This document shows positions 8,297-50,227 of a stretch of 64,000 bases of DNA, piece after piece. Made by a program: the position numbers and the translations under genes. The stretch comes from Eubacteriales bacterium (GTDB lineage: Bacteria > Bacillota > Clostridia > Oscillospirales > CAG-382): NCBI GenBank assembly GCA_045636285.1, contig JAZTXJ010000007.1, forward strand, positions 35,032-99,031. Reading direction: 5' to 3'. Numbering within the stretch: position 1 is the stretch's first letter; every line of letters begins with the position of its first letter. Under the pieces are notes generated by a model. That model searched no databases. It had not been told where the DNA came from and worked only from the letters and a program-made list of their open reading frames with translations.

Positions 8297-9358
8297 TTAT
8301 TTAATAATAACTTCGTGGCCGGTTCTTGCGGATTCGTAAATCGCATCGAGAATCTTCATAAGAACTACGCCGTCCTCCGCGGGAGAGATGCATTCGCAGT
8401 TGCCGAGGCAGGAATCAACAAAGTGCTGAATTTCACGCGAGAAAAGTCCGTCGAAATTGAGCGCGGTATCGCCGAAGGGCTTTATATCCACGAAAACGCC
8501 GTTCATGTCGCCGAAGTATTCAACCTGCGGGCTGATCTTTGCGCCTGCTTTCGTACCGAAGAGCTCGATTTCGCCGCGGTCGTTTTTAAGATTGAGCTTG
8601 AAGGATGCTTCGACCGAAAGGGTAAGACCGTTATCAAAGCGAACCATTGCAGCCGCCATTTCTTCGACGTTGTATTTGAAATCAAAGCCCGTAGTGGTGG
8701 AAACCCAGCTCTGACCGCCGCCTGCGCGGTTGGGGTCGAGGTTATTGTAGGTTACGCCGTATGCCGAAACGGGCTTGGGGTTACCTGCGAGGAAGCGAAC
8801 AAGGTCGATAACGTGAACGCCGAGGTCGAAAAGAGGACCGCCGCCCGAATATTCCTTATCGCCGAACCAGCCGCCGGGACAGCCGTTGCGACGGAGATAG
8901 CTTGCCTTTGCATAGTAAAGGTCGCCCATGGTGCCGCCGTCGATGAATTTGCGGATAAGGTCTGCATCGTTACCGAAGCGGCGAACGAAGCCAACCATCA
9001 AAATTTTGCCGTTCTTTTTAGCGCATTCGAGCATTTCTTCCGCTTCTGCGGTGTTCATTGCCATAGGCTTTTCGCAAAGAACGTGACAGCCTGCGTTGAG
9101 CGCCGCAATAGTCGCGGGCTTGTGCGAGGAGTTCCAGGTGCAGACCGAAACTGCATCGAACTTTTCCTTTGCGAACATTTCGTTAAAATCGGTATAGTAT
9201 GCGGGCACGCCGTATTTTTCCGCATAGTTTTTCGCCTTGTTTTCGTCAAGGTCGCAGACTGCAACGATTTCGCATTTTTCGGGAATTGTTTTATAACCGT
9301 GTGTGTGGCTGTTGCTTATACCGCCCGTGCCGATAATCGCAATTCTGAGCTTTTCCAT
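8297..9358 (-). CDS. Gfo/Idh/MocA-family NAD(P)-dependent oxidoreductase
   Basis: N-terminal Rossmann motif RIAIIGTGGISNSH and EKP motif (VLCEKPMA). Confidence 0.85.
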   Translation of the reverse strand: MEKLRIAIIGTGGISNSHTHGYKTIPEKCEIVAVCDLDENKAKNYAEKYGVPAYYTDFNEMFAKEKFDAVSVCTWNSSHKPATIAALNAGCHVLCEKPMAMNTAEAEEMLECAKKNGKILMVGFVRRFGNDADLIRKFIDGGTMGDLYYAKASYLRRNGCPGGWFGDKEYSGGGPLFDLGVHVIDLVRFLAGNPKPVSAYGVTYNNLDPNRAGGGQSWVSTTTGFDFKYNVEEMAAAMVRFDNGLTLSVEASFKLNLKNDRGEIELFGTKAGAKISPQVEYFGDMNGVFVDIKPFGDTALNFDGLFSREIQHFVDSCLGNCECISPAEDGVVLMKILDAIYESARTGHEVIIK

Positions 9359-9416
9359 TTTTCAATTCTTCGCGGCGAGCCCTGCTCGTTCGCGTTTCCT
9401 TTCGTGTACTATCTTG

Positions 9417-9445
9417 ATAATATTATCATTTTCCCCTTTTGTCAA
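9417..9445 (-). promoter_or_regulatory. Promoter of the Gfo/Idh/MocA gene, with overlapping 14-bp palindrome
   Basis: Minus strand TTGACA (9445-40) -17- TATTAT (9422-17); perfect palindrome TGATAATATTATCA at 9415-9428 covers the -10. Confidence 0.55.
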
Positions 9446-9492
9446 GATATGTCTATAAAAATAAAAATTTTTAACAAAATAATACTTTTCTA

Positions 9493-9521
9493 TTGACAAT
9501 CGCGTGATTGTATGTTATAAT
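9493..9521 (+). promoter_or_regulatory. Consensus promoter of DUF805-A
   Basis: TTGACA -17- TATAAT; spacer contains the palindrome CAATCgcgtGATTG. Confidence 0.65.
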
Positions 9522-9555
9522 CAGTTAACGAATTTAGGAAAGAGGTCTGTTTGCT

Positions 9556-10053
9556 ATGATTAAATCTTATATTGACGGTTTGAAAAAATGGAAGCGCTGG
9601 GACGGCCGCACGAGAAGAAGGGATTATTGGCTGTATACGACTTGCAACGTTCTCGTACTGGCAATCGCGATTCCGCTTTCTTCTCTGTTGAGCACGCTCG
9701 GCTTTACCACGCTTGCAATTCTTTCGTGGGTCGCCACTGTCGGTTATGCGGTGCTTCAATTAATTCCCACGCTGGCAATTACGATAAGAAGACTGCACGA
9801 TACGGGCAGAGGCTTTTTCCACCTGCTTATCCAATACCTCCCCGCCGTTGTTTCGGTTATTCTTTCGGCTATCGGCATAGGCGGTCTTTTTAACTCGATC
9901 ATTTCGAGCGCTTGTGAAATCATATTTTTCGTTTGGATGGTATTGCCCGGCACCGTCGGCAGAAACAAGTTCGGTCCCGACCCGAAGGACACTCAGTTCT
10001 CGCAGGAGGATGCGACCAGCTACGGTGAATACCCCAACTTCAGAGGAGAATAA
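9556..10053 (+). CDS. DUF805-family membrane protein (copy A)
   Basis: GRTRRRDYWLY and IRRLHDTGRG motifs typical of DUF805; consensus promoter upstream. Confidence 0.75.
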   Translation: MIKSYIDGLKKWKRWDGRTRRRDYWLYTTCNVLVLAIAIPLSSLLSTLGFTTLAILSWVATVGYAVLQLIPTLAITIRRLHDTGRGFFHLLIQYLPAVVSVILSAIGIGGLFNSIISSACEIIFFVWMVLPGTVGRNKFGPDPKDTQFSQEDATSYGEYPNFRGE

Positions 10054-10940: not shown

Positions 10941-10974
10941 AAAAGCGTATGAAACCGAAATTTCATACGCTTTT
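10941..10974. terminator. Bidirectional terminator after the 291-aa gene
   Basis: AAAA GCGTATGAAA ccgaaa TTTCATACGC TTTT. Confidence 0.8.
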
Positions 10975-11036
10975 CCATTTTTCAATTCTTCGCGGCGAGC
11001 CCTGCTCGTTCGCGTTTCCTTTCGTGTACTATCTTG

Positions 11037-11064
11037 ATAATATTATCATTTTCCACTTTGTCAA
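11037..11064 (-). promoter_or_regulatory. Orphan duplicate of the Gfo/Idh/MocA promoter plus palindrome
   Basis: Minus strand TTGACA (11064-59) -16- TATTAT (11042-37); palindrome TGATAATATTATCA at 11035-11048; points into terminator 10941-10974. Confidence 0.5.
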
Positions 11065-11111
11065 GATATGTCTATAAAAATAAAAATTTTTAACAAAATA
11101 ATGCTTTCCTA

Positions 11112-11140
11112 TTGATAATCACGCGATTGTGTGTTATAAT
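11112..11140 (+). promoter_or_regulatory. Promoter of DUF805-B
   Basis: TTGATA -17- TATAAT; spacer AATCacgcGATT. Confidence 0.6.
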
Positions 11141-11173
11141 CGATCAACAAATCCAAAAAGGAGTTGAATTATA

Positions 11174-11611
11174 GTGTTTAAAGCTTATATTGACGCTGTC
11201 AAAAATTGGCGTAATTGGTACGGCCGCACGAGAAGAAGAGATTATTGGCTGTATCAGCTCTGCAACGTTATCATCTTTATAGGGCTGTATGCGCTCGCAA
11301 CTCTGCTCGCGATGTTGAAGATCAACACGCCCTCGATCCTTTTCTTCGTTGCTGCCTACGCTTACTGCGTTTTACAAATAATCCCCTCGATTGCGATCGA
11401 GATAAGGCGTCTGCACGATACGGGGCGCGGCGGCGGATGGTATTTTATAAGGCTTGTACCCTATGCAGGCAGTATATGGGCGTTCGTGCTCACCCTCTTA
11501 CCCGGCACTAATGGCGGTAACTACTTCGGTCCCGACCCGAGAGACACTTTTATCCCGCAGGACACCAACGCAACCTACAGCGATTACACAGATTTTTCGG
11601 GCAAGGAATAA
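11174..11611 (+). CDS. DUF805-family membrane protein (copy B, GTG start)
   Basis: Paralog of 9556..10053 (same GRTRRRDYWLY / IRRLHDTGRG motifs); AAGGAG RBS; duplicated promoter upstream. Confidence 0.7.
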   Translation: MFKAYIDAVKNWRNWYGRTRRRDYWLYQLCNVIIFIGLYALATLLAMLKINTPSILFFVAAYAYCVLQIIPSIAIEIRRLHDTGRGGGWYFIRLVPYAGSIWAFVLTLLPGTNGGNYFGPDPRDTFIPQDTNATYSDYTDFSGKE

Positions 11612-15959: not shown

Positions 15960-16700
15960 ATGAAACTCAAAGCACTTATCGCTTTTGTCTGTGTTGTTGC
16001 GACGGTGTTCGCCTGCTCGGCGTTTGCGCTTGCAGAGGAAAGCGGTATCGAAAACGCTATTCCCGCCGCGGCTGAAAGCATAGCAGAGGACGCGCCCATT
16101 GTTGAGGATGCACCCGCAGTTGAAGAAGTTCCCGCAGTTGAGGAAGCGCCCGCAGTTGAGGATGCTCCCGCAGTTGAGGAAGCTCCCGCAGTTGAGGATG
16201 AAGCGGAAGAAGCCGTTATCGAGCGTTCCGAAAAGTGTACCGCAGACTTTAACGTTCATATACTCGACTACATAAACGATTCGAGCTGCTACTACCGTTC
16301 GGTAAAGGATGTTGTTGCAGACTACGGCGAAGACCTTTACTACCCCGCTTACGAGGGTTATGAAAACGCATGCCAAGCGTACATAATCTATGCGGAAAGA
16401 GGCTATGCCGACGGAAGAATCGGCCCTAAGGTTCTCCAGATCGAATATGCATGTGAGTATCTCGAAATCTGCTGGATCAAGATCGGCGCAACTGTTGCAA
16501 ACGAGGGTATGAATCCCGTTGCGGAAATATACGAAAGCCACGGAGCAGAATTTTATATCAGCGAATACTTCGAGGAAGGCCCCAACAACTACGGCGGTCA
16601 TATCGTCGAAGGCGTTATTGAAGGAAACTGCTACCAATTTTTCGTTAAAACCGTTGAAGAAGGCAAGCTTATTGTTGACAGCTTAACAAAAGCGGAATAA
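15960..16700 (+). CDS. Secreted protein: signal peptide, APAVEE/D tandem repeats, C-terminal domain paralogous to the adjacent putative anti-sigma ectodomain
   Basis: Signal peptide MKLKALIAFVCVVATVFACSAFA; six 18-bp repeats; residues about 95-246 align at roughly 75-80% identity (by eye) to residues about 103-248 of ORF 17305..18051. Confidence 0.65.
   Translation: MKLKALIAFVCVVATVFACSAFALAEESGIENAIPAAAESIAEDAPIVEDAPAVEEVPAVEEAPAVEDAPAVEEAPAVEDEAEEAVIERSEKCTADFNVHILDYINDSSCYYRSVKDVVADYGEDLYYPAYEGYENACQAYIIYAERGYADGRIGPKVLQIEYACEYLEICWIKIGATVANEGMNPVAEIYESHGAEFYISEYFEEGPNNYGGHIVEGVIEGNCYQFFVKTVEEGKLIVDSLTKAE
16091..16198 (+). repeat. Six tandem 18-bp in-frame repeats encoding (A/V)P(A/I)VE(E/D)
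   Basis: Units gcNcccgcagttgagga(a/t) read directly at 16091, 16109, 16127, 16145, 16163 and 16181. Confidence 0.9.
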
Positions 16701-16713
16701 TATTTTTATGTAT

Positions 16714-16741
16714 CCGCCCCGAATATCTATTTTCGGGGCGG
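16714..16741 (+). other. GC-rich hairpin without U-tract between the secreted paralog gene and the sigma gene
   Basis: CCGCCCCGAA tatctat TTCGGGGCGG followed by acgcctc (no T-run); only 34 nt before the sigma start, with no promoter seen in between. Confidence 0.6.
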
Positions 16742-16775
16742 ACGCCTCAAAACAAATTTTCGACAGAGGGTTAGA

Positions 16776-17300
16776 ATGTTTGAAAACGCATTTTTGAACA
16801 CGGTATGCGATAACGCCTTGCGTTCGATAGCATCGGGCGATAAAAGCGCGCTTGCCGTTATATACGACAAAATGCACAGGCAGATATATTCGGCGGCGTG
16901 GGCTATACTGAACAATCATCAGGATGCCGAGGACGCATTGCAGAATACCCTTTGCGAAATACTTTATTGTGCAGACAGCTACAAAGGGCCGAACGCAAAG
17001 GCTTTTATAATATCGGTCGCGCGGAACCAAGCGCGAAACATTTTGAGAAAACGCAAAAACGAAACCGTTTTACCGCCGGACGAAACACACGCATCCGACT
17101 TTAACGCAGAATCGGAATTTATTTATCTCGATGCGCTCTCGACGCTTAGCGAAAGAGAACGCGAAGCGGTGATACTTAAAATATACTGCAAAATGAAGCA
17201 CAAAGAAATCGCCGGACTTTTGGGCATAACCGCTTCGGCGGCAGAGAAGCTTTACCAAAGAGGAATAAGCAAGCTTCGCAAATACTATAAAGGAGGGTAG
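16776..17300 (+). CDS. ECF-type RNA polymerase sigma-70 family factor
   Basis: 174 aa; region 2-like (DAEDALQNT) and region 4 HTH (KHKEIAGLLGITASAAEKLYQRGISKLR). Confidence 0.8.
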   Translation: MFENAFLNTVCDNALRSIASGDKSALAVIYDKMHRQIYSAAWAILNNHQDAEDALQNTLCEILYCADSYKGPNAKAFIISVARNQARNILRKRKNETVLPPDETHASDFNAESEFIYLDALSTLSEREREAVILKIYCKMKHKEIAGLLGITASAAEKLYQRGISKLRKYYKGG

Positions 17301-17304
17301 CTCC

Positions 17305-18051
17305 GTGAAAAATATTAAAAAAGGTATTAAAAACGACTTCGACAGTATCGAACACAGGTCAAAAGAAGAAATGCTCGGATTTGCGGGAATAAGACCGTCC
17401 GCACCGCGAAAAAGGCGCAGACTGTGCGCCGACAGGCTGATAAGCGTCGCGCTTGCGGCGGCAATGCTGCTTTCGTTCGGGGCAATCCTCACGCTTGCCG
17501 AAAACAACAATGCGCTTATTGACGAAATATTTGTCAAAATAGAAAATATGTTTCCCGATAAAGATGCCGAAAAATCACCCGCGCCTATCGACCGCAGAAT
17601 GAAACCGAGTAACGAATTCAACGTTCTTCTGCTCGACTACGCAAACGACTCGAAATATTACTACCGTTCGGTAAAGGACGCCGTTGCCGACTACGGCGAA
17701 AACCTTTACTACCCCGCTTACGAGGGCTATGAAAACGCATTCCAAGCGCACATAATCTACTCGATGAGAGGCGATAATCCCTCTTTCCAGATCGAATATG
17801 CACGCGAAACTCTCGAAATCTGCTGGATCAAGATCGGCGTAACGGTTGCAAACGGAGGCATGAATCCCTTTGTGGAAAAATACGAAAGCCACGGAGCAGA
17901 ATTTTATATCAGCGAATACATCAAGGAAGGTCCCAACAATTACAGCGGTCATCTCGTCGAAGGTGTTCTTGAAGGAAACAGCTATCAATTCTTCGTTAAA
18001 ACCGTTGAAGAAGGCAAGCTTATCGTCGACAGCCTTGCAAAAGCGGAATAA
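17305..18051 (+). CDS. Putative single-pass anti-sigma factor with extracytoplasmic sensor domain (GTG start)
   Basis: Starts 4 nt after the sigma gene with an AGGAGGG RBS; short cytoplasmic N-terminus, TM helix LISVALAAAMLLSFGAILTLA, 150-aa outer domain; role assigned by position only. Confidence 0.5.
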   Translation: MKNIKKGIKNDFDSIEHRSKEEMLGFAGIRPSAPRKRRRLCADRLISVALAAAMLLSFGAILTLAENNNALIDEIFVKIENMFPDKDAEKSPAPIDRRMKPSNEFNVLLLDYANDSKYYYRSVKDAVADYGENLYYPAYEGYENAFQAHIIYSMRGDNPSFQIEYARETLEICWIKIGVTVANGGMNPFVEKYESHGAEFYISEYIKEGPNNYSGHLVEGVLEGNSYQFFVKTVEEGKLIVDSLAKAE

Positions 18052-20201: not shown

Positions 20202-20254
20202 TTACAAATCTCTAATATTTTCCGAACAAATTCAGAATATCGCGCAGTTATGCT
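20202..20254 (+). promoter_or_regulatory. ACAAAT boxes 22 bp apart plus putative -10 upstream of paralog 1
   Basis: ttACAAATctc (20204-09) .. gaACAAATtca (20226-31) -17- TATGCT (20249-54). Confidence 0.5.
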
Positions 20255-20279
20255 GTTTTCACAGAAAGGAGGAGTGTTT

Positions 20280-21146
20280 ATGAAAAATAAGACACTCGCA
20301 TTAATAACTGCGGCACTTATCACCGCCGCGGCGCTTATTCTCACCGCAGGTCTTTCTCTGCTCGATACCTCGGCTATCGATGATTCTGTTGTGGAATCGA
20401 CCGCTGACAGCGGAACTGTCGGCGCAGAGCTTCCCGAAGAAATCGTAACCGAAAACGAAGCGGAAGAAGCACCCGAAGAGGACGCACCCGCAGAAGACGC
20501 GCCCGCAGAATATCCCGACACTACTCTCCCCGCGCTCGATACTCTCGAAGCCGTCACCACAAGCGACGAAACCGGTTACGATAACCCCGGCTTTGAATAC
20601 GTTATCTGGAAGGATATCGTTATCGACGTATTCGAGCACAAAACCGGCAAGCTTGTCGGTCAGGTATGGCTTACCGAAGACGAGCTCTATAACGAATTCT
20701 GCAAAATCTTCGAAGCCGATTTCGACCACACCGCAGGTCTTTTCGACCCCAACAACCCCGAAGACGTTCCCGTTTATATTCCCGAAGCGGAATACCGTGT
20801 TGAATTCTATTGGGTACACCGCCTTACCGAAAGAGCAAGCGGTTGCTGCGGCAGCCTTGCATTTTCCTACGGTGTAGAGAATAACGAAATTTACGAATAC
20901 ACCCAAACAGGCTATTCTCTCGCAAACGGCGAAACGGTTATCGCGTTTATGGAATCGCTCGTAGCGAAAAAGATCGCACAGCTCGAAAACGGCGTTATCG
21001 ACGAGCTCGAAGCAGAGGAATCCTTTGCACACATTATCGGCTTTGACGGCGAAAACAGCTGCTGGAACGGCACCACCCTTTCTACCGGCGAATTTATCCC
21101 CGGTTCTCCCCGCTATGCAGAAAGATTCCCCTATTTAGCAAATTAA
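20280..21146 (+). CDS. Membrane-anchored/secreted protein of unknown function (paralog 1)
   Basis: N-terminus MKNKTLALITAALITAAALILTAGLS, acidic Pro/Ala/Glu linker, C-terminus ..ERFPYLAN; AGGAGG RBS; paralog of 22926..23831. Confidence 0.65.
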   Translation: MKNKTLALITAALITAAALILTAGLSLLDTSAIDDSVVESTADSGTVGAELPEEIVTENEAEEAPEEDAPAEDAPAEYPDTTLPALDTLEAVTTSDETGYDNPGFEYVIWKDIVIDVFEHKTGKLVGQVWLTEDELYNEFCKIFEADFDHTAGLFDPNNPEDVPVYIPEAEYRVEFYWVHRLTERASGCCGSLAFSYGVENNEIYEYTQTGYSLANGETVIAFMESLVAKKIAQLENGVIDELEAEESFAHIIGFDGENSCWNGTTLSTGEFIPGSPRYAERFPYLAN

Positions 21147-21187
21147 TTCCCCTCCTTACTTATTACATCCCTCAATCCCTTACACAA

Positions 21188-21222
21188 AACAGCTCGGTCT
21201 TTCACTGACCGAGCCGTTTTGT
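21188..21222 (+). terminator. Terminator after paralog 1
   Basis: GCTCGGTC tttcact GACCGAGC then cgttttgtt. Confidence 0.65.
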
Positions 21223-21257
21223 TCAGAGCGAGAGAAATGAGGCTATTTTTGAAGTGT

Positions 21258-21288
21258 GGGGTCCCCGAAAACATTTATGTTTTTGGGG
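21258..21288. repeat. Mini-palindrome GGGGTCCCCGAAAA..TTTTTGGGG, copy a
   Basis: ggggtccccgaaaacatttatgtttttgggg; absent from the equivalent position of element copy 2. Confidence 0.75.
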
Positions 21289-21385
21289 TATAAATAACGA
21301 GCGTAGGCTTACAAATGTAAGGTAGTCGAGTTTTTTGTAAAAGCCCTTGAAAATACAATAAAAAATCTATTTCCTTATAAAAAAA

Positions 21386-21424
21386 GAATCAAGCTTCACA
21401 ATTAAAATGAAGCTTGATTTTTCT
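21386..21424. terminator. Core hairpin of element copy 1 (terminator-like)
   Basis: GAATCAAGCTTCA caattaaaa TGAAGCTTGATTT TTT, A-run upstream. Confidence 0.65.
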
Positions 21425-21453
21425 ATTGATTATTTTTTTCAAGGGCGTAAATC

Positions 21454-21484
21454 GGGGTCCCCGAAAATGCTAGCATTTTTGGGG
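21454..21484. repeat. Mini-palindrome GGGGTCCCCGAAAA..TTTTTGGGG, copy b
   Basis: ggggtccccgaaaatgctagcatttttgggg; the stem interior differs from copy a but stays self-complementary. Confidence 0.75.
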
Positions 21485-21517
21485 TGGCTTAGTCCATTTC
21501 TCCGCGCTCTGATATGT

Positions 21518-22672
21518 TTATTGGGGTTTTTTGATGGTATCCTTAATGTTATCGTAAATATACTGTGCAAAGGTTTTGTAGGTTTCGTCCTTCGGGTGCA
21601 AGCCGTCGGTGAAGACCTCTTTGTTTTCCTTCGACCAGGGGAACATATCGACCGTCTGAAGTCCGCGGTCCTTTGCTATCTGCACGAGCAAGGGGTGCGA
21701 ATATTTAACGATATTTGCGGTCCACGCTTCTGCATTCCAGCCGTCTGCGCCGACCTTGAAGAGCGATGCGGGAAGGATCATAATAATCTGAACGTCGGGG
21801 TTTGCGTTCTTATAAGCATCGAGCAGGTCGTTGGTGCTCTTTATAAATACGTTAGTTCTGTCGTACTGCGGATCTTCCCAATTTTTATAGGGCTGATTGG
21901 GAGTGGGGTTTGCATCGTTGGTGCCGAGCGCGAAAAGTACAACGTCGGGGCGAAGCTCGCGCGATTCGGTGAACTGCTTCGATTTGAAATACGCGTAATC
22001 ATCGATATTGCAGATCGAATAGCCGCTGAGTCCCGCATTGAGAACGTAGTAATCGTAGCCGAGCATTTCCTGAATATATACGGGGTAGGTTTTGTTCACG
22101 GGGTCGGTCGAGTTGATACCCTGCGTGATACTGTCGCCGACACAGGCAACCTTTATAATCTTCTTTTCGCCGCTTACTTCCATATCTGTAAACACTCCGT
22201 CGGACGAATTCTTGATTTTTTCAAGAAGCGCTTCGCTTCCCGCATTACAGCCCTGAGGATAAGAGCTTGCGATAAGCACCTTACTGCCCTTGATAACGAG
22301 CTTGTATTCGCCGAATGCGTATTCGGCTTTGTATTCCGCCGAAATATCGCGGTTTGCGGCAAGACCGAAGATTATTTCGTTTTCCGCCGCGGGAATGGTT
22401 TCTTCGCGGCAAGGAAGAGTAATATCGAACGTATCCTTTACGTAATTCGCAAAATTCTTCGCAATAGTCTTGTAATCGACTCCGCTCTTAACGCTTTTGT
22501 AAACAACGGTGAATTCCGAAAGGTCGATACCGTTTATAACCGGCTTTTTCGGCGGTATCGATTCTTCGACAGAAGATTCTGCCACCGATGAATCTTCGCC
22601 GTTTTCCTTGCAAGCCGCAAAGGAAACGAGCATAAGCATACAAAGCAGTATGCACAAAATTTTCTTTTTCAT
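21518..22672 (-). CDS. SGNH/GDSL-family hydrolase lipoprotein
   Basis: Lipobox LVSFAAC; block I VACVGDSITQG; C-terminal DGLHP (block V); start moved to ATG 22672 behind a GGAGG RBS. Confidence 0.75.
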   Translation of the reverse strand: MKKKILCILLCMLMLVSFAACKENGEDSSVAESSVEESIPPKKPVINGIDLSEFTVVYKSVKSGVDYKTIAKNFANYVKDTFDITLPCREETIPAAENEIIFGLAANRDISAEYKAEYAFGEYKLVIKGSKVLIASSYPQGCNAGSEALLEKIKNSSDGVFTDMEVSGEKKIIKVACVGDSITQGINSTDPVNKTYPVYIQEMLGYDYYVLNAGLSGYSICNIDDYAYFKSKQFTESRELRPDVVLFALGTNDANPTPNQPYKNWEDPQYDRTNVFIKSTNDLLDAYKNANPDVQIIMILPASLFKVGADGWNAEAWTANIVKYSHPLLVQIAKDRGLQTVDMFPWSKENKEVFTDGLHPKDETYKTFAQYIYDNIKDTIKKPQ

Positions 22673-22847
22673 AATAGTTCCTCCGAATTTTTTATCGCGC
22701 AATGCAAAACAGCAGCGCTTCCCGCGAAAGCGACTTTAAACGCCTTGGGGGCTTATGCGCCTCTTTTAACTGTAATTTTATACCAAATGAATCCATTTGT
22801 CAATCCTCTGAACGAACAGAACAAATTTATCGGTTTTCGCGTAACTT

Positions 22848-22900
22848 TTACAAATTCATAACAACGCCCGAACAAATCCAGAATATTGACATTTTAAGAT
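22848..22900 (+). promoter_or_regulatory. ACAAAT boxes 22 bp apart plus putative -10 upstream of paralog 2
   Basis: ttACAAATtca (22850-55), taACAACgccc, gaACAAATcca (22872-77) -17- TAAGAT (22895-900). Confidence 0.5.
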
Positions 22901-22925
22901 ATTCACACAGAAAGGAGGAGTGTTT

Positions 22926-23831
22926 ATGAAAAACAAGACACTCGCATTAATCACTGCGGTGCTTATCACCGCATCGGCGCTTATCCTTACTGCGGGACTT
23001 TCGTTCCTGAACACCTCTGCGATCGACGATTCGACCGTTGAATCGACAGCAGACAGCGGAACCTCGGGCGCAGAGCTCGAAAATACCGTGACCGACGAAA
23101 ACTATCCCGTTATCGAGGAAGGCCCTCTCACAGATATTCCCGCGTATGATCCCGAAACCGCAATTCCCGAAGCGGAAAACGCACCTCTCGAAGAGGAAAC
23201 TCCCGTTGTTGACGGTTCTGTTCCCGTTGAAAACGCTCCCGTCGAAAACGCACCCGCTTACGAATACCCCGTTTTCGATTACGTTGAAGGCGACGCAAGA
23301 AACGTTTACGTCTGCGGCGGAGAACACGTCGACAAGGGCGTTGTTATCGACGTTTATTCCCACAAAACAGGCAAGCTCGTAGGTCAGCTCGCGTTCACCT
23401 CGCAGGAGGTCACAAGCTATATCAGCTCGCTTATGCGTGAAGAATTCAAGCCCGAAAACGAGCTTTGGATCGAACAGGATATAAGCTGTGTTGCTCTTCC
23501 CGAGGGTGATTACAGAATCGAAGTCTATGCAGGCACGTGGTTCTCCTACACCTACGGCACAAGCGGCATTTTTGAGCTTACTCAGTGCACCCTTACCTTC
23601 AGCGGCGGCGAAAAGCTCACCGGCTATATCGATTTCCTTATCGCAGACCTTATTGCCGATATCGAAGCAGGTAACGTCGAAGCTCCCGATCCCGAAATGG
23701 CGGTTTCCAAGCTCATTTACGCAGGAATCGAAGGCTATTGGGAAGGATATTACAACGAAGTTTGCGATATGTATATCCCCGGCGCAGGCAGATGGTGCGA
23801 ACGCTTCCCCTACCTTGCAACCGAAGAATAA
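22926..23831 (+). CDS. Membrane-anchored/secreted protein of unknown function (paralog 2)
   Basis: First about 48 residues nearly identical to 20280..21146, C-terminus ..CERFPYLATEE; identical AGGAGGAGTGTTTATG translation-initiation region. Confidence 0.65.
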   Translation: MKNKTLALITAVLITASALILTAGLSFLNTSAIDDSTVESTADSGTSGAELENTVTDENYPVIEEGPLTDIPAYDPETAIPEAENAPLEEETPVVDGSVPVENAPVENAPAYEYPVFDYVEGDARNVYVCGGEHVDKGVVIDVYSHKTGKLVGQLAFTSQEVTSYISSLMREEFKPENELWIEQDISCVALPEGDYRIEVYAGTWFSYTYGTSGIFELTQCTLTFSGGEKLTGYIDFLIADLIADIEAGNVEAPDPEMAVSKLIYAGIEGYWEGYYNEVCDMYIPGAGRWCERFPYLATEE

Positions 23832-23874
23832 TAAATGACTTTCACTCTTTAAACTTTTCCCAAAGTCTAAATAG

Positions 23875-24082
23875 GAGTAAGAGAAATGAGGCTATTTTTT
23901 ACGAAAAAGGAGCGTAGGCGTACGATTGTACGACAGTCGAGTTTTTCGTAAAAGCCCTTGAAAATACAATAAAAAATCAAATTCCTTATTAAAAGAAATC
24001 AAGCTTCACCATAAAAATGAAGCTTGATTTTTTCTTTGCTTTGTTATTTCAAGGGCGTAAAGAGCCCATTTCTCCGCGCTCC
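23875..24082. repeat. Nested-palindrome intergenic element, copy 2 (short form)
   Basis: GAGAAATGAGGCT (23881-93) pairs with AGCCCATTTCTC (24063-74); TTTTACGAAAAA (23897-908) with TTTTTCGTAAAA (23942-53); GCCCTTGAAA (23954-63) with TTTCAAGGGC (24047-56); core hairpin 23996-24030. Confidence 0.8.
23996..24034. terminator. Core hairpin of element copy 2 (terminator-like)
   Basis: AAATCAAGCTTCA ccataaaaa TGAAGCTTGATTT TTTT. Confidence 0.65.
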
Positions 24083-24087
24083 GTATC

Positions 24088-24522
24088 TTATAAATATTGG
24101 CGCATCTGTATAGCAAGATCGTCTTCGAGCTTGATAAGCCTGTTTGCGAAGCCCTTCGAAACGCTGTCCGCCGCCTTGTATTGATTAATATAGCGGTTAA
24201 GCGATTTAACGCCCATATTACAGCCGTCGGTAATAAGGTCGGCTACCGTTTTGTCGGAATCGTCAAGCGCCATTTTCACGTTGGTCTTAATCCAGCTCAT
24301 TCCCTTTGCGGCGGGTGCGGGCTCTTTGCCCTTGTCGCAATTTTCTTCGAGCTTCTGCTTTATTTCGGAAAGCAGGGTTTCGTGCTGGTTGCGGCAATCT
24401 GCAAGACAGTTTCGCATCGGCTCGGACTTAACCGAGGAAATAACCTCGTTTATCGAGGAAACACCCATCTTCACGCCCGCATCGCATTCGCGCAGTAATT
24501 TTAAAGTATCGTTTTCGTACAT
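24088..24522 (-). CDS. Hypothetical helical protein
   Basis: 144-aa ORF with coding-like composition, predicted all-helical; no family confidently recognised. Confidence 0.5.
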   Translation of the reverse strand: MYENDTLKLLRECDAGVKMGVSSINEVISSVKSEPMRNCLADCRNQHETLLSEIKQKLEENCDKGKEPAPAAKGMSWIKTNVKMALDDSDKTVADLITDGCNMGVKSLNRYINQYKAADSVSKGFANRLIKLEDDLAIQMRQYL

Positions 24523-44148: not shown

Positions 44149-44946
44149 ATGGAAAAAGCAAAGGTCTTTACCCTTTTTTCATCCTCGAAGGGAAACTGCA
44201 CTTATATTAAATACGGCAGTGACGAAATTCTTATCGATTGCGGTGCTTCGGCAAGAGCTATCGAAAATTCGCTCAGGCTTTTGGGCACGAGCCTTGATAA
44301 CGTAAATGCGATTTTTATCACGCACGAGCACACCGACCATATATGCGGATTGACGACCATAACGAAAAACCACAATATTCCGATATATGCCCCCGAACCG
44401 AGCTGTAATTATATTTACGAGCGTATGCCTGCCGAAAAACCGCTTATCGCAATAAATTCGGGCAAGGCGGTCGAGCTTTCCGATCTCGCCTTGTGTCCGA
44501 TTGCAACCCCGCACGATGCACGCGGAAGCGTCGGCTTTCGTATCCGCGCGGGCGAGGAAAAAATAGGCTATTTTACCGATATAGGTCATCTTTCGGAAAA
44601 TGTGTTGCGCGGACTTTCGGGCTGTGAGCGCGTGATTATCGAATCGAACCACGATATCGAAATGCTCAAAAACGGGTCTTACCCCTACCAGTTAAAGCAA
44701 CGCATTCTCGGCGACAGAGGACATCTTTCGAACGAAATGTGTGCAAAGCTTTTGCCTCATCTCGCCAACCACGGAACGCGCTCCTTTGCGCTCGCACATT
44801 TGAGCGAGGAAAACAACCGTGTAGAAATCGCGTATAACGAAAGTCTGGTTTCTCTGCACGAAAGCGGGTTTACCGTTAATTCCGAAAGCGGATGCGGCTT
44901 AACGCTTGCCGTTGCTTCTGCTTGCGGAATATGCGAGGTTAAATAA
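44149..44946 (+). CDS. MBL-fold metallo-hydrolase (YycJ-like)
   Basis: HEHTDH zinc motif, 265 aa. Confidence 0.8.
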   Translation: MEKAKVFTLFSSSKGNCTYIKYGSDEILIDCGASARAIENSLRLLGTSLDNVNAIFITHEHTDHICGLTTITKNHNIPIYAPEPSCNYIYERMPAEKPLIAINSGKAVELSDLALCPIATPHDARGSVGFRIRAGEEKIGYFTDIGHLSENVLRGLSGCERVIIESNHDIEMLKNGSYPYQLKQRILGDRGHLSNEMCAKLLPHLANHGTRSFALAHLSEENNRVEIAYNESLVSLHESGFTVNSESGCGLTLAVASACGICEVK

Positions 44947-44951
44947 AAAAA

Positions 44952-44990
44952 GAATCAAGCTTCACGGTTAATGAAGCTTGATTTTTTGTT
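44952..44990. terminator. Bidirectional terminator (MBL / YgjV genes) with the same stem as the element core hairpins
   Basis: GAATCAAGCTTCA cggttaa TGAAGCTTGATT TTTT. Confidence 0.75.
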
Positions 44991-47436: not shown

Positions 47437-47466
47437 GAAAACGGTTGCAATGCAACCGTTTTTATT
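47437..47466. terminator. Bidirectional terminator (thiN / tandem array)
   Basis: AAACGGTTGCA a TGCAACCGTTT TT. Confidence 0.7.
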
Positions 47467-48023
47467 TATTGCTCTGTGTTCAAATCAATCATTTCGTAAT
47501 ATTTTGTATTGTACATAAATACAGGAATTTGAGGTTTATCTTTTCTTATTACGATATAAAACACGTCCCCCTCGCTGTGAATCCGCATTTCTTCGATTGT
47601 CTTAACAACCCTTCCGCACCTTTCGAAATACATTGCGTGCTGCATAACGTAACGGCCTCTGCGGTTTTTTACCTCTTGATCGTTTTCGGAAACACGTAAA
47701 AGCTTATCGATTATGATCGAATAAGAGCCGTCGGCAAGTTGTTTTTTTGATTTGTAATAGTACCATACGCAAAAAACACTCGCAGCGATCGGCACCGCCA
47801 TAATAAGCATTTGCACGACTTCTTTGCCTTTCATGTTGAGAGGAGCAGTGATTGCAAGAATCCCAAACAGAACAAACCAAACGGCACATCCGCAAAGACA
47901 GAATTTTAATTCAGATTTCACACCGTCCGCAAGCTCTGAAAAAATCGAGCTTGGAGATATTATTTGCTTTTTCTGTATGGCGTTTGCATCGCTTTTCGTG
48001 CTATCACTGTTGTAGTTTGCCAT
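47466..48023 (-). CDS. Tandem-array 2-TM protein, member 4 (unknown family)
   Basis: MANYNSDSTKSD N-terminus, two TM helices, C-terminal domain with QHAMYFERCGRV..GDVFYIV..YNTKYYEMIDLNTEQ; AAGAGGT RBS in the 13-nt gap. Confidence 0.6.
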   Translation of the reverse strand: MANYNSDSTKSDANAIQKKQIISPSSIFSELADGVKSELKFCLCGCAVWFVLFGILAITAPLNMKGKEVVQMLIMAVPIAASVFCVWYYYKSKKQLADGSYSIIIDKLLRVSENDQEVKNRRGRYVMQHAMYFERCGRVVKTIEEMRIHSEGDVFYIVIRKDKPQIPVFMYNTKYYEMIDLNTEQ

Positions 48024-48036
48024 CTTTACCTCTTAT

Positions 48037-48570
48037 TTATTGCTCGGTATTCAAATCGACCAATTCGTAATATTTCGAATTATAGGTAAGCAAGGGTGTG
48101 GTGGGGTGTGTTTTTGTTACGACAACATAGAATATATCGCCCACGCTGTTCGTGTTGGTTTCTCCGTAAGTAACGAGCACTCTTCCGCATTTTTCGAGAT
48201 AAATTGCGTGCTGCACGCTGACCGACGCATAGTTCCCCTGCAGTCTTACTTTCACTTTTTCCTCGGGAGCGACACGTTCGACCTTATCGGTAATAATCAT
48301 AAATTCGCCGTTTTTCAGCATTTGCATTGTCTTGCGGTAAGAAAAAATCCCACCCACAAGCACAACGACAGGAAGACAATAAAATATCGTGCTTATTATT
48401 CTGTGGTCTATAATTATCGCCGTAATAATAAACATAACGCATACTAAAGGCAACGCCCAAACCGATTGCTTTGCCGGCTTTTCGAAATGATCGTATATCA
48501 TTTTCGGCGTTATTTTTCTTTTGCCGTCGGAGTAATCGCTTTTCGTGCTGTTGCTGTTGTAGTTTGCCAT
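48037..48570 (-). CDS. Tandem-array 2-TM protein, member 3
   Basis: Same architecture; QHAIYLEKCGRV..GDIFYVVV..YNSKYYELVDLNTEQ; AAGAGGA RBS in the 13-nt gap. Confidence 0.6.
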   Translation of the reverse strand: MANYNSNSTKSDYSDGKRKITPKMIYDHFEKPAKQSVWALPLVCVMFIITAIIIDHRIISTIFYCLPVVVLVGGIFSYRKTMQMLKNGEFMIITDKVERVAPEEKVKVRLQGNYASVSVQHAIYLEKCGRVLVTYGETNTNSVGDIFYVVVTKTHPTTPLLTYNSKYYELVDLNTEQ

Positions 48571-48583
48571 TTTTTCCTCTTAT

Positions 48584-49144
48584 TTATTGCTCGGTATTCA
48601 AATCAACCAGTTCGTAATATTTAGTGTTGTATGCGAAAAGTGCTTTATTAGGTCTTTCTTTACTTACGACCACAAAAAATTCGTCGCCCTCGCTGTTTGT
48701 ATAGGTTTCCTGGAGCGAAATCACCACTCTGCCGCAACGGTAAAGATACATAGCGTGCTCCATATACGAATGTCTTCCGTAGCGCACGTATCTGTCGTCG
48801 GTAACGATTCGGTCGGCAGTATCCGTAATTATTTTATACCCGCCGTCCGCGAGCTTTTTCATATTGCGGTAATAGCTGTAAACGCTCGCCATAAAGATCA
48901 AAAACGGAACGCTCAACAGCAAAATATTAACAAGCGTTGCCCACTTTTTCTCCATACCGCTGACGTTTACAATCAATACAAAAAGCAGCGCAACGATCAA
49001 AAACGCAACCGATACGATAGTCATCCCCCAAAGCTCGCCCTTGTGCGAATTGGAAAGTGCATCGTATATTCTTTGGGGCGTTATCTGCTTTTTCTTATTG
49101 TCGTCGGGGGCGATTTCTGTGCTTTTGCTTACGTAATTAGCCAT
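48584..49144 (-). CDS. Tandem-array 2-TM protein, member 2
   Basis: Same architecture; EHAMYLYRCGRV..GDEFFVVV..YNTKYYELVDLNTEQ; start overlaps member 1 stop by 8 nt. Confidence 0.6.
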   Translation of the reverse strand: MANYVSKSTEIAPDDNKKKQITPQRIYDALSNSHKGELWGMTIVSVAFLIVALLFVLIVNVSGMEKKWATLVNILLLSVPFLIFMASVYSYYRNMKKLADGGYKIITDTADRIVTDDRYVRYGRHSYMEHAMYLYRCGRVVISLQETYTNSEGDEFFVVVSKERPNKALFAYNTKYYELVDLNTEQ

Positions 49145-49679
49145 TTTTTATATCCTCAAGCTTATATTCCTTGGCGTTGTATATATTCACGACGGTCTTT
49201 GGGTCGTGCCGATACACGACTATATAAAAGGTGTCGCCCACGTTTGCCGTATAGGTTTGATCGAACACAACGGCGACTCTTCCGCATCTTTCGAAATAAA
49301 GCGCGTGCTCTCTGATTTCTGTCCCTGCGCTCTTTTCGACCTTATCGTTGGGGGAAACGGCTATAACCGTATCCTCGAAAACGTAATAGGCTTCTTTCGG
49401 CTTGATTACAAGAAAGGCTACGAGCATTAACGCATAGAACAGCACTATAAGCACCGAAGCAATGATCAGCAAAACCTTTACCACGGTAGCCCAAGTAGTA
49501 TCATCGGGCAGGCAGAGCAACAGTATAACAAACGAGATCAGCAGCGAACCGAACAAAATCCCCGCAAAGAGAAGCATCTGCCGTTCCTGCGAGTTAACGG
49601 TTTTCTGCACCGAGCTGTGATCCAACTGCTTCTTTTCGGAATCCGTAATTTTTGTATTTTCGCTTACGTAATTACCCAT
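49137..49679 (-). CDS. Tandem-array 2-TM protein, member 1 (most divergent)
   Basis: MGNYVSENTK N-terminus, two TM helices, EHALYFERCGRV..GDTFYIVV core but different C-terminal end (..YKLEDIKNG); start overlaps the kinase gene by 16 nt. Confidence 0.6.
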   Translation of the reverse strand: MGNYVSENTKITDSEKKQLDHSSVQKTVNSQERQMLLFAGILFGSLLISFVILLLCLPDDTTWATVVKVLLIIASVLIVLFYALMLVAFLVIKPKEAYYVFEDTVIAVSPNDKVEKSAGTEIREHALYFERCGRVAVVFDQTYTANVGDTFYIVVYRHDPKTVVNIYNAKEYKLEDIKNG

Positions 49680-50227
49680 TCGTTACCTCTCGGATAAGCT
49701 CCGTCTATCTCAGTAACATTATACACTATATCTTTGCTTCCGTCAAGGGTTATTATTTTGCATTTAAGGAGCTTCTGCCATTCGTCGTGCATCGCGCGGG
49801 AACGCATATCGGCTCCGCCGTTGTCATACCTGCCTGCCCATTCAATAAACGCAGTATGCGTATCGTACATATCGCCGCCCGCCTCTATTCTGCTTCCGAA
49901 GCGCTCTCTTTCGCGCGATTTCAAGCGTTTGATTCTCGTTTCGGTATCGGTAACGAGCCTTATGGCAAGCGTAAACAGCGGTATCAGTTCATCACCCCAG
50001 CCCGAAAGCGAACCGGATATAACCACGTTTTCGTGTGCTTCAATATCGCGCTTCATAAGCGCAATCCGCTCTGCTTTTTCGCGTTTTACCGTGAATTTAG
50101 GGTCGGTCGGCAACCAAAAATAATCGTCGGTATCCATAAAGAAATAACCCGATTTTTCGCAAAAAGCACGCCCAAGCGTGCTCGTTCCCGCACCCGAAGC
50201 GCCAAAAATATGTATGATTTGCTTCAT
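49664..50227 (-). CDS. P-loop NTPase, FlaR/adenylate-kinase-like small kinase
   Basis: Walker A IFGASGAGTSTLGRA followed by MDTDDYFWLP, as in FlaR-like 'topology modulation' kinases; ATG 50227 forms an ATGA overlap with the upstream stop. Confidence 0.7.
   Translation of the reverse strand: MKQIIHIFGASGAGTSTLGRAFCEKSGYFFMDTDDYFWLPTDPKFTVKREKAERIALMKRDIEAHENVVISGSLSGWGDELIPLFTLAIRLVTDTETRIKRLKSRERERFGSRIEAGGDMYDTHTAFIEWAGRYDNGGADMRSRAMHDEWQKLLKCKIITLDGSKDIVYNVTEIDGAYPRGNEWVIT

Follow-up and report, generated by a model that had tools for sequence, protein, structure and literature searches.

A modular family of palindromic intergenic repeats with a predicted bidirectional terminator in uncultured gut Clostridia

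A 64,000-nucleotide stretch of contig JAZTXJ010000007.1 from an Eubacteriales bacterium (assembly GCA_045636285.1; the whole stretch is called the window below) carries two copies of a non-coding, palindromic intergenic element, here copy 1 and copy 2. They belong to a dispersed and apparently undescribed family whose host group is uncultured gut Clostridia, represented by Oscillospirales-like metagenome-assembled genomes (MAGs). We favour, as the probable explanation, that the family is a modular, non-autonomous repeat that targets terminators, supplies a bidirectional terminator of its own and is retained under selection. This explanation builds on the dispersal of the copies, their compensated fold, an insertion polymorphism, the duplication of hairpins, the polarity of partial copies and the constraint on resident copies, all of which are established by the comparisons below. 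The first-pass annotation, made from the letters of copy 2 and its surroundings, had offered two readings: a transcribed structured 3' untranslated region (UTR) or small RNA (sRNA) with a bidirectional terminator, or a non-autonomous repeat resembling MITEs (small transposable elements with inverted repeats) or repetitive extragenic palindromes (REPs).

A dispersed family with one compensated fold

Direct reading of positions 21000-24400 bore out every helix, coordinate and small hairpin described earlier for the two copies, the palindrome of copy 2 reaching slightly past 23875-24082 on both sides. In copy 2 the outer helix joins GAGAAATG(A)GGCT (23881-23893) to AGCCCATTTCTC (24063-24074) and is lengthened by GGAGT (23874-23878) and GCTCC (24078-24082); the other helices are of 12 bp (TTTTACGAAAAA, 23897-23908, with TTTTTCGTAAAA, 23942-23953), of 10 bp (GCCCTTGAAA, 23954-23963, with TTTCAAGGGC, 24047-24056) and a core hairpin followed by a T-run (AAATCAAGCTTCA, 23996-24008, with TGAAGCTTGATTT, 24018-24030). 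Copy 1 equals copy 2 plus two 32-nt hairpins, GGGGTCCCCGAAAA..TTTTTGGGGT, in junction loops (21258-21289 and 21454-21485). The small hairpin reads CGTAC-gatt-GTACG in copy 2 (23919-23932) and CTTAC-aaat-GTAAG in copy 1 (21308-21321), so the double change from G:C to T:A that had been reported is real, and a second compensated change, G:C to A:T, separates the copies in the 12-bp helix. RNAfold reproduces these helices and gives the window copies -74.7 and -101.4 kcal/mol (z = -6.90 and -6.96), with no shuffle folding as well as either. Both copies lie, as noted at the outset, between convergent genes: 20250-21146 (+) and 21518-22672 (-) around copy 1, 22920-23831 (+) and 24088-24522 (-) around copy 2.

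The first-pass annotation had allowed that no further copies might exist; copies are in fact dispersed across many loci and genomes. Species-representative genomes were scanned with a pattern matching either arm (GCCCTTGAAA, 15-45 nt, AATCAAGCTTCA), which yielded 22 loci, 18 of them with real copies; copy numbers from this one scan are lower bounds and are biased to copies with standard inner stem and core. The remaining four (L007, L009, L016 and L018) were chance pattern matches in which neither nhmmer nor the covariance model found an element. The goat-rectum MAG 'Clostridia bacterium RGIG3112' holds 9 full and 8 partial copies on 11 contigs, and seven further Eubacteriales or Acutalibacteraceae MAGs hold one to three copies each. 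Additional copies came from Logan/ENA assemblies fetched through neighbouring proteins (L026 and L034) and from a metagenome contig (L023), the one real copy that the core pattern found in JGI metagenomes; L024, from the same search, is a chance hairpin. A core-free pattern found nothing in the JGI metagenomes, two patterns found no copy in IMG/VR, and blastn of the element matched nothing in phage and plasmid collections. The length of a full copy is about 205-230 nt and reaches up to 290 nt where optional hairpin modules are present. The comparison with Rfam proposed in the first-pass annotation gave no known RNA family at gathering score over the whole window; in E-value mode the best matches were at most 26 bits against thresholds of 44-200, and all were implausible. 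A literature search found no description of the element.

With more copies in hand a covariance model (R1) was built, and covariation was tested on 17 full copies (alignment A3) over 65 pairs specified by the analyst. All follow one plan. From 5' to 3', the terminal inverted repeats (TIRs) provide the outer stems P0 and P1 (with a bulged A), and a TTTT junction leads into Branch 1; AAG, the inner stem P3, a conserved A-rich linker and the central hairpin between an A-run and a T-run follow, and a variable T-rich linker, P3', CGTAAA, P1' and P0' close the element. The TIRs (CAGACCGAGAGAAAYG... / ...CRTTTCTC..GGTCTG) are imperfect, about 20 nt long and able to pair as a long outer stem; the inverted-repeat ends seen earlier are present, with P0 74% and P1 79% paired and 10 pairs changed on both sides. 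Branch 1 (57 nt) consists of a 13-bp outer helix, the conserved asymmetric loop RAGCGTNG / CAGTCGA(A)G and a tip whose stem has 5-7 bp and whose loop has 4 nt. Standard pairs occupy 89.8% of the cells of the 65 pairs, as against 35-50% when partners are slid by 1-3 columns. Changes on both sides affect 24 pairs, compared with 11.6 ± 1.8 in shuffles, and none of 500 shuffles reached any of five measures, so the hint of covariation taken from two copies is strongly confirmed. RNAalifold recovered the internal helices independently. Most of the signal comes from Branch 1 (93-98% paired, 10 pairs changed on both sides), which together with the 5' linker is the best conserved part of the element and whose loop motif occurs inside elements only, once per unit and in the left arm only. 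P3 varies in copies found by other routes (GTCC/GGAC in L023, GCGC/GCGC in L034).

The family is modular, since optional hairpins recur both at the junctions and alone, and central hairpins are replaced. An optional GGGGTCCCC hairpin occupies the same junction in L001, L003, L014 and L019 and stands solo in L015 and L002. The central hairpin is wholly replaced between conserved arms at L012:6709-6902 and in L034, and is replaced as well in the partial copy of L005. In the window, model R1 matches the two full copies and a solo core and nothing else; this third hairpin, at 44953-44983, was absent from the first-pass annotation and counts among the seven occurrences of the core 12-mer at one mismatch or fewer, against 0.48 expected. 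As a separate observation, GGGGTCCCCGAAAA(N)TTTTTGGGG is a small hairpin repeat by itself, present within several copies, where it is confined to junction loops, and elsewhere as a solo unit of other intergenic hairpins (window 21258-21289 and 21454-21485; L015:5975-6005; L002:590-620 and 685-715).

The central hairpin scores as a terminator. For both copies it is the minus strand that is called; read on the plus strand, this hairpin precedes T6, and its 9-nt loop lies beyond the scanner limit. Folding z values (RNA plus -6.9, RNA minus -9.5, DNA -8.3) distinguish neither strand nor molecule. Because G-U outnumbers A-C by 17 to 2 cells on one strand, at no fewer than 9 pair positions, Branch 1 behaves as a hairpin folded on one strand, as RNA or as single-stranded DNA. 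The outer stems have no such bias (11 versus 15, with many other mismatches) and behave more like imperfect inverted repeats.

Insertion beside terminators and the mode of spread

Copy 1, an insertion specific to the lineage, lies immediately behind the native terminator of gene 20250-21146. The GDSL lipase gene between the two copies supplied homologs through which orthologous loci were obtained. At the copy 1 site, L028-L030 (lipase protein 78% identical to that of the window) and L031 (71%) have the native terminator only: L031 reads ...GTTTTGT / TGAG / TATATTTGATTATTCGGG and the window ...GTTTTGT / [element] / TATGTTTATTGGGG. The copy count and empty-site comparison that the first-pass annotation had suggested thus gave multi-copy dispersal and, for copy 1, an empty site in relatives. 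Elsewhere, L002, L006 and L020 are 94-97% identical at unrelated loci of one MAG, an identity that, judged from the sequences, is the result of recent spread. A different insert occupies the copy 1 site in L025 (6150-6390) and L026 (5080-5320): an unrelated hairpin-rich segment of about 150 nt (TTGAGAGAAAAACTTTTTAAAAAAGTTTTTCTCTCAA...CTGCCGTTACGGCAGACCGCC...), placed after the native terminator, with the 11-nt direct repeat TTTTGTTTTAT on either side. Another repeat family may be represented here or, in view of its CAGACCG, a distant relative.

Insertions sit in A/T tracts beside native terminator hairpins, at gene 3' ends. A systematic comparison of flanks found long direct repeats around four of them (Table 1). 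Since each repeat has its own sequence and contains the local A-run, hairpin and T-run terminator, these are duplications of the target and not cargo of the element; in the youngest copies they take in the entire native hairpin (22-30 nt) on either side. About 16 insertions have no flanking repeat longer than 8 nt. The two ends differ in precision: the right junction is always ..G[G/T]CTG followed by AA..., and the left carries 0-3 extra bases and, in three cases, also a 21-nt palindrome (CTTGCAGAC-TTT-GTCTGCAAG) that is found nowhere else and has the look of two element tips joined head to head. Of the partial copies, all 11 have the right end and are without the left (model starts 55 and 102-154), and no copy with only the left end was found, though the search pattern matched both arms alike. 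Head-to-tail tandem arrays occur at L001, L005, L008, L011, L012 and L015.

These features bear on several modes of spread. Cut-and-paste by a DDE transposase does not fit, because the duplications are variable and hairpin-sized, the left junctions imprecise and the copies one-ended. We therefore regard it as very improbable that the family consists of classical MITEs, derived by deletion from a DDE-transposase insertion sequence (IS) and moved through their TIRs, even though imperfect TIRs of about 20 nt, AAG on both sides of several copies and the small, non-coding, dispersed, AT-rich and intergenic character of the element would suit one. The flanking duplications (22-30 nt) are specific to each locus, one of them belongs to a one-ended copy, the filled and empty versions of the copy 1 site differ without any duplication, and no parent IS or transposase was found in the window open reading frames (ORFs) or in some 300 kb of fetched loci. 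A consistent short AAG target duplication was not upheld outside one subfamily. The MITE/REP-like reading of the first-pass annotation accordingly survives as to multi-copy dispersal, an empty site and target duplications, and fails as to a classical MITE or a REP.

An element of the HUH type, either REPIN/RAYT-like or an IS200/IS605 palindrome-associated sequence with its hairpin recognised on one DNA strand, is in our judgement improbable. HUH transposition is not known to produce the long target duplications seen here; moreover, there is a single Branch 1 per unit and hence no REP doublet, the sequence is AT-rich, and no Y1 transposase was found among the window ORFs. On the other hand, an HUH origin would suit the strand-specific bias of Branch 1 (read as G-T), the imperfect hairpin with its conserved bulge and mismatch, the clean insertion at site 1, the head-to-tail arrays and the position at gene 3' ends, which is shared with REP/BIME (PMC3733652). 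The Branch 1 tip CGTC(G), with a 7-bp stem and a 4-nt loop, recalls CGTC-tagged REPs, but the stems lack the initial A-T pairs described for those.

Template switching during replication, between hairpin-forming sequences (the element and terminators) and at microhomologies in A/T tracts, would need no dedicated enzyme and could yield the variable length of the duplications, the filler bases, the truncated copies and the inverted tip palindrome at the left junction. Microhomology at the junctions (AAG(A) at the right; CTTATAA left of L019a) and the wholesale exchange of central hairpins, and of terminators at orthologous sites, also speak for it. However, nearly all copies share the same right boundary, and a coherent, selected architecture at many loci in several species is more than sporadic rearrangement usually yields, so that as the sole explanation it carries little probability. 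That the two window copies are a mere by-product of local segmental duplication can be dismissed. The upstream genes 20250-21146 and 22920-23831 are indeed paralogous (78% identical at their 5' ends) and each is followed by the element; but relatives possess both paralogs with site 1 empty or differently filled, the sequence from stop codon to element is unrelated between the copies, and dozens of copies lie at unrelated loci in other genomes.

For the terminator-targeting repeat that we prefer, we infer an enzyme acting in trans, a copying direction that starts at the right end, a DNA or RNA intermediate and a benefit to the host. New copies would be joined across the base of the target hairpin in a polar copy-in process rather than by DDE cut-and-paste. 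Three routes are conceivable. An integrase or transposase might attack both sides of an extruded or folded hairpin, by analogy with repeat duplication by Cas1-Cas2; target-primed reverse transcription resembling that of short interspersed nuclear elements (SINEs) might be used, and would explain the precise 3' junction, the imprecise 5' junction, the 5' truncation and the variable duplications; or template switching between hairpins at microhomologies might proceed free of any enzyme. It would be bolder to propose a mode of spread new for bacterial repeats, in which copy-in is polar, begins at one end and is aimed at terminator hairpins, either by SINE-like target-primed reverse transcription of a transcript or by an integrase that, like Cas1, measures across a palindrome. 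Either route would copy the whole hairpin of the target to both sides and produce copies truncated at the left, and the host would afterwards have adopted the residents as sequence-constrained 3'-end modules; we mention this as a doubtful but interesting prospect.

Constraint on resident copies and their possible role

Copy 2 has an ortholog at L026:2616-2838, in the identical position and between the same flanks. Their alignment shows 9 differences over 208 positions (95.7% identity) and none over 23955-24074 (100%), as compared with an identity of 85-88% in the adjoining coding regions (67-74% at third-codon positions), 60% at third-codon positions of the lipase gene and 72.7% in the next intergenic region. 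Nine or fewer differences in 208 nt have a probability below 1e-6 even at 15% neutral divergence. In the ortholog pair L005/L022 the element is 97% identical against 82.6% at third-codon positions. Homogenisation by other copies fails to explain this identity, since both copy 2 orthologs share linker variants unseen in other copies. Resident copies are thus constrained and change at a rate several times below that of synonymous sites. Of the nine differences, six lie in the 16-nt Branch 1 tip, where CTTAC-aaat-GTAAG (the allele also of window copy 1) and CGTAC-gatt-GTACG (also in L023) are exchanged, which suggests patch conversion or diversifying change.

Ordinary terminators in the neighbourhood are not conserved like the element. 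Downstream of the MBL-hydrolase gene 44149-44946 the terminators of the window (44947-44989), L039:1508-1546, L043:2299-2345 and L045:2296-2335 were compared: in orthologs whose proteins are 92% and 83% identical the hairpin is unrelated, and in one of 77% it is core-like and shows, relative to the window core, a compensatory A-T to G-C change. Terminator hairpins seem to be swapped as cassettes between A-run and T-run. Separately, at L031:5815-5880, downstream of a 144-aa gene, TIR-like arms (ACCGATATAAACGAAAGAC / GTCTTTTTCGG) lie directly around a core-like hairpin (AATCAAGCCTCG / CGAGGCTTGATT) with two compensatory changes; Branch 1 and P3 are absent, and this may be an ancestral or reduced form at the copy 2 site.

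Constraint of this kind raises the question of whether the element is primarily a structured RNA of the host, a cis-acting 3' UTR element or an sRNA ending at the core terminator, its mobility being incidental. Covariation with conserved loops, the one-strand bias of Branch 1, the strong conservation of the 5' linker and Branch 1 (which lie upstream of the terminator on that strand), purifying selection on orthologous copies and the confinement of extra hairpins to junction loops all agree with such an RNA. Against it, P1 and P3 both covary, yet neither can form in RNA that is terminated at the central hairpin, and the strand of Branch 1 is not that of the upstream gene in L004, L005/L022 and L011, although the L005/L022 copy is still 97% conserved. 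No conserved promoter was evident in the element; promoter-like hexamers on the minus strand of Branch 1 had variable positions and were no commoner than in shuffles. The mid-fold terminator, the strand mismatch at three loci and the lack of an evident conserved promoter weaken an RNA gene as the primary identity, and mobile DNA is indicated by dispersed copies that are nearly identical, by duplicated targets, by truncation and by a site that is empty in relatives; nor was any Rfam family matched. On these grounds we think the structured-RNA explanation unlikely.

If the element is instead the terminator-supplying mobile repeat that we favour, a resident unit would terminate and insulate the two converging transcripts, and would be kept by selection for its terminator role or for a sequence-specific interaction. 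Several points weigh against this reading. Strong purifying selection on a resident copy is unexpected for purely selfish DNA. The filled and empty states of copy 1 in the window lineage show no target duplication, and duplications accompany only 4 of about 20 insertions, three of them in one subfamily. Pfam revealed no transposase, integrase or reverse transcriptase domain in about 56 window ORFs, and the fetched loci, about 300 kb in all, yielded no long element bounded by these ends. Finally, the invariance of P3 and core in most copies is set in part by the search pattern, and all sequences are from MAG, metagenome or Logan assemblies.

Table 1. Coordinates of the two window copies, their parts, associated hairpins and the flanking duplications at other loci (window positions unless a locus is named)
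Feature	Location	Strand	Remarks
Copy 2, whole element	23868-24092	+	Model R1 match 23867-24089, 232.8 bits; fold
Left TIR, 5' strand of outer stems P0 and P1 (GGAGTAAGAGAAATGAGGCT)	23874-23893	+	Partner 24063-24082; family consensus CAGACCGAGAGAAAYGARG
Branch 1, left-arm hairpin	23897-23953	+	13-bp outer helix; conserved asymmetric internal loop RAGCGTNG / CAGTCGA(A)G; variable tip 23919-23932
Inner stem P3, 5' strand (GCCCTTGAAA)	23954-23963	+	Compensatory variants in L023 and L034
A-rich 5' linker (AATACAATAAAAAATCAAATTCCTTATTAAAAG)	23964-23995	+	Sequence conserved between copies (alignments)
Core: A-run, 13-bp hairpin, T-run; predicted bidirectional intrinsic terminator	23996-24036	either	Minus-strand terminator-like call in both copies
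Inner stem P3, 3' strand (TTTCAAGGGC)	24047-24056	+	Followed by conserved CGTAAA
Right TIR, 3' strand of P1 and P0	24063-24082	+	Every partial copy from other genomes keeps this end
Copy 1, whole element (CAGAGCG...CGCTCTG)	21224-21511	+	nhmmer and covariance-model matches
Optional hairpin module (GGGGTCCCCGAAAAC..GTTTTTGGGGT)	21258-21289	+	In the junction of P1 and Branch 1; same module in L001, L003, L014 and L019
Second optional hairpin module	21454-21485	+	Flanked by GGGCGTAAA and the right P1 strand
Native terminator of gene 20250-21146	21192-21222	+	Outside the element; marks the insertion point; orthologous terminators in L025, L026, L028 and L031
Solo family core terminator hairpin	44947-44989	either	Immediately follows the stop codon of the MBL-hydrolase gene 44149-44946
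Flanking duplication	L002		29 nt, identical
Flanking duplication	L020		30 nt, one mismatch
Flanking duplication	L010		24 nt, two mismatches
Flanking duplication	half copy L019:2551-2650		22 nt, one mismatch

Other candidates and neighbouring features of the window deserve brief mention. A small ORF starting at a loop ATG of copy 2 (24017-24184) was rejected: its frame relative to TTTCAAGGGCGTAAAG, compared by eye, differs between copy 2 and L002, and it is without a ribosome-binding site. By eye, none of the resemblances to hammerhead, K-turn, sarcin-ricin, attC or dif fits; for integron attC in particular, R''(RYYYAAC)...R'(GTTRRRY) cores are missing from the ends, the copies lie between convergent genes and no integrase was found in the window. 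The genes 15960-18051, 20250-21146 and 22920-23831 form a paralogous family with no Pfam match, an N-terminal signal-like segment recognised by eye, an 18-nt tandem repeat (acidic-Ala-Pro-x-Val) at 16068-16211 and blocks of 84-89% identity between 16245-16700 and 17614-18051; their neighbours are a sigma factor and a two-component system. On the minus strand, 47462-49685 holds four paralogous units in tandem, each of about 550 nt, with blocks 65-82% identical and no Pfam match for the two ORFs tested. Duplicated DUF805 genes (9349-9654 and 10969-11272) are 75-84% identical in their coding regions and 99% over the 91 nt upstream, which points to recent conversion or to a leader or promoter under strong constraint.

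Significance and relation to known repeats

Interspersed palindromic repeats have been well studied in Proteobacteria and streptococci and hardly at all in the uncultured Clostridia, which are dominant in the guts of animals. The present family unites a large, compensated and branched fold, a two-way terminator and insertion footprints that do not suit standard transposition. Its built-in terminator can replace or supplement native terminators, which in these genomes are fast to turn over at orthologous sites. Should the mechanism prove new, it would add a class of terminator-targeting mobile DNA; should the constraint reflect function, the family would let the domestication of a mobile element as a 3'-end module be put to the test. 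In practical terms, these repeats can be annotated in MAGs with the covariance model; they probably fragment the assemblies there and probably lead sRNA and terminator predictions astray.

Among systems that act at hairpins, class C group II introns of bacteria recognise the hairpin of an intrinsic terminator and insert just downstream of it; they are not known to make a target duplication. Group II introns, however, are ribozymes of at least 600 nt with domains I-VI and GUGYG/AY ends, usually with a reverse transcriptase ORF, and the element has no such features and no Rfam match. In spacer integration by Cas1-Cas2, and with casposons, two attacks are made around a palindromic segment, and the whole segment of tens of base pairs is duplicated; here, by contrast, the insert is about 100-245 nt of a repeated element and not a spacer, and the targets are unrelated terminators and not one repeat. 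As a side observation, the right tip TCGGTCTGAA (L010:3479-3493 and L013:768-782) is 8/10 identical to the Neisseria DNA-uptake sequence, GCCGTCTGAA, which in Neisseria also occurs as inverted pairs in terminators; the resemblance is probably a coincidence.

Other small repeats offer further comparisons. RUP is a MITE with TIRs that is tied to an IS630-type element and makes a short duplication, and Correia elements have defined 26-nt TIRs and duplicate TA. The pneumococcal BOX, RUP and SPRITE repeats (PMC3049150) resemble our family in being small, non-coding, modular repeats of Firmicutes with stable predicted folds at gene ends, BOX consisting of boxA, variable copies of boxB, and then boxC (PMC3049150); compared by their described features only, none of them is built on a bidirectional terminator or reported to duplicate a target hairpin. 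The Correia (NEMIS) elements of Neisseria, about 100-160 nt long, and other MITEs that bear terminators or promoters (PMC3184786, PMC10969869) are likewise TIR palindromes whose transcripts form hairpins and which alter neighbouring transcription or termination. The present element is set apart from Correia by duplications that are 22-30 nt or absent, by one-ended copies and by a three-way junction with covarying internal hairpins.

The REP, BIME and REPIN sequences of Proteobacteria (PMC3116915, PMC3337134, PMC3733652) have much in common with the family: they too are extragenic palindromes at gene 3' ends and between convergent genes, are mosaics of hairpin modules in clusters or tandem arrays, undergo paired changes, persist for long at orthologous sites, and have been assigned possible roles in termination and in the protection of mRNA 3' ends. 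A REP, however, is a palindromic unit of 20-40 nt with an unpaired GTAG or CGTC tag, the CGTC stems being of 8-9 bp and starting with A-T, and the loops of 4-5 nt (PMC3733652), whereas the element has about 200 nt, is AT-rich and branched, and embeds a terminator between an A-run and a T-run. Its tip CGT[CAT]G lies inside a larger hairpin on a 5-7-bp stem that starts with G/C and carries a 4-nt loop, with no GTAG tag; there is no inverted pair, the Branch 1 motif occurring once per unit in the left arm; no RAYT gene was identified in the sequences covered; and long target duplications are not a REP feature. Tag, stem and doublet thus speak against an identity with REP or REPIN, and the element is best seen as a variant of the known interspersed palindromic intergenic repeats.

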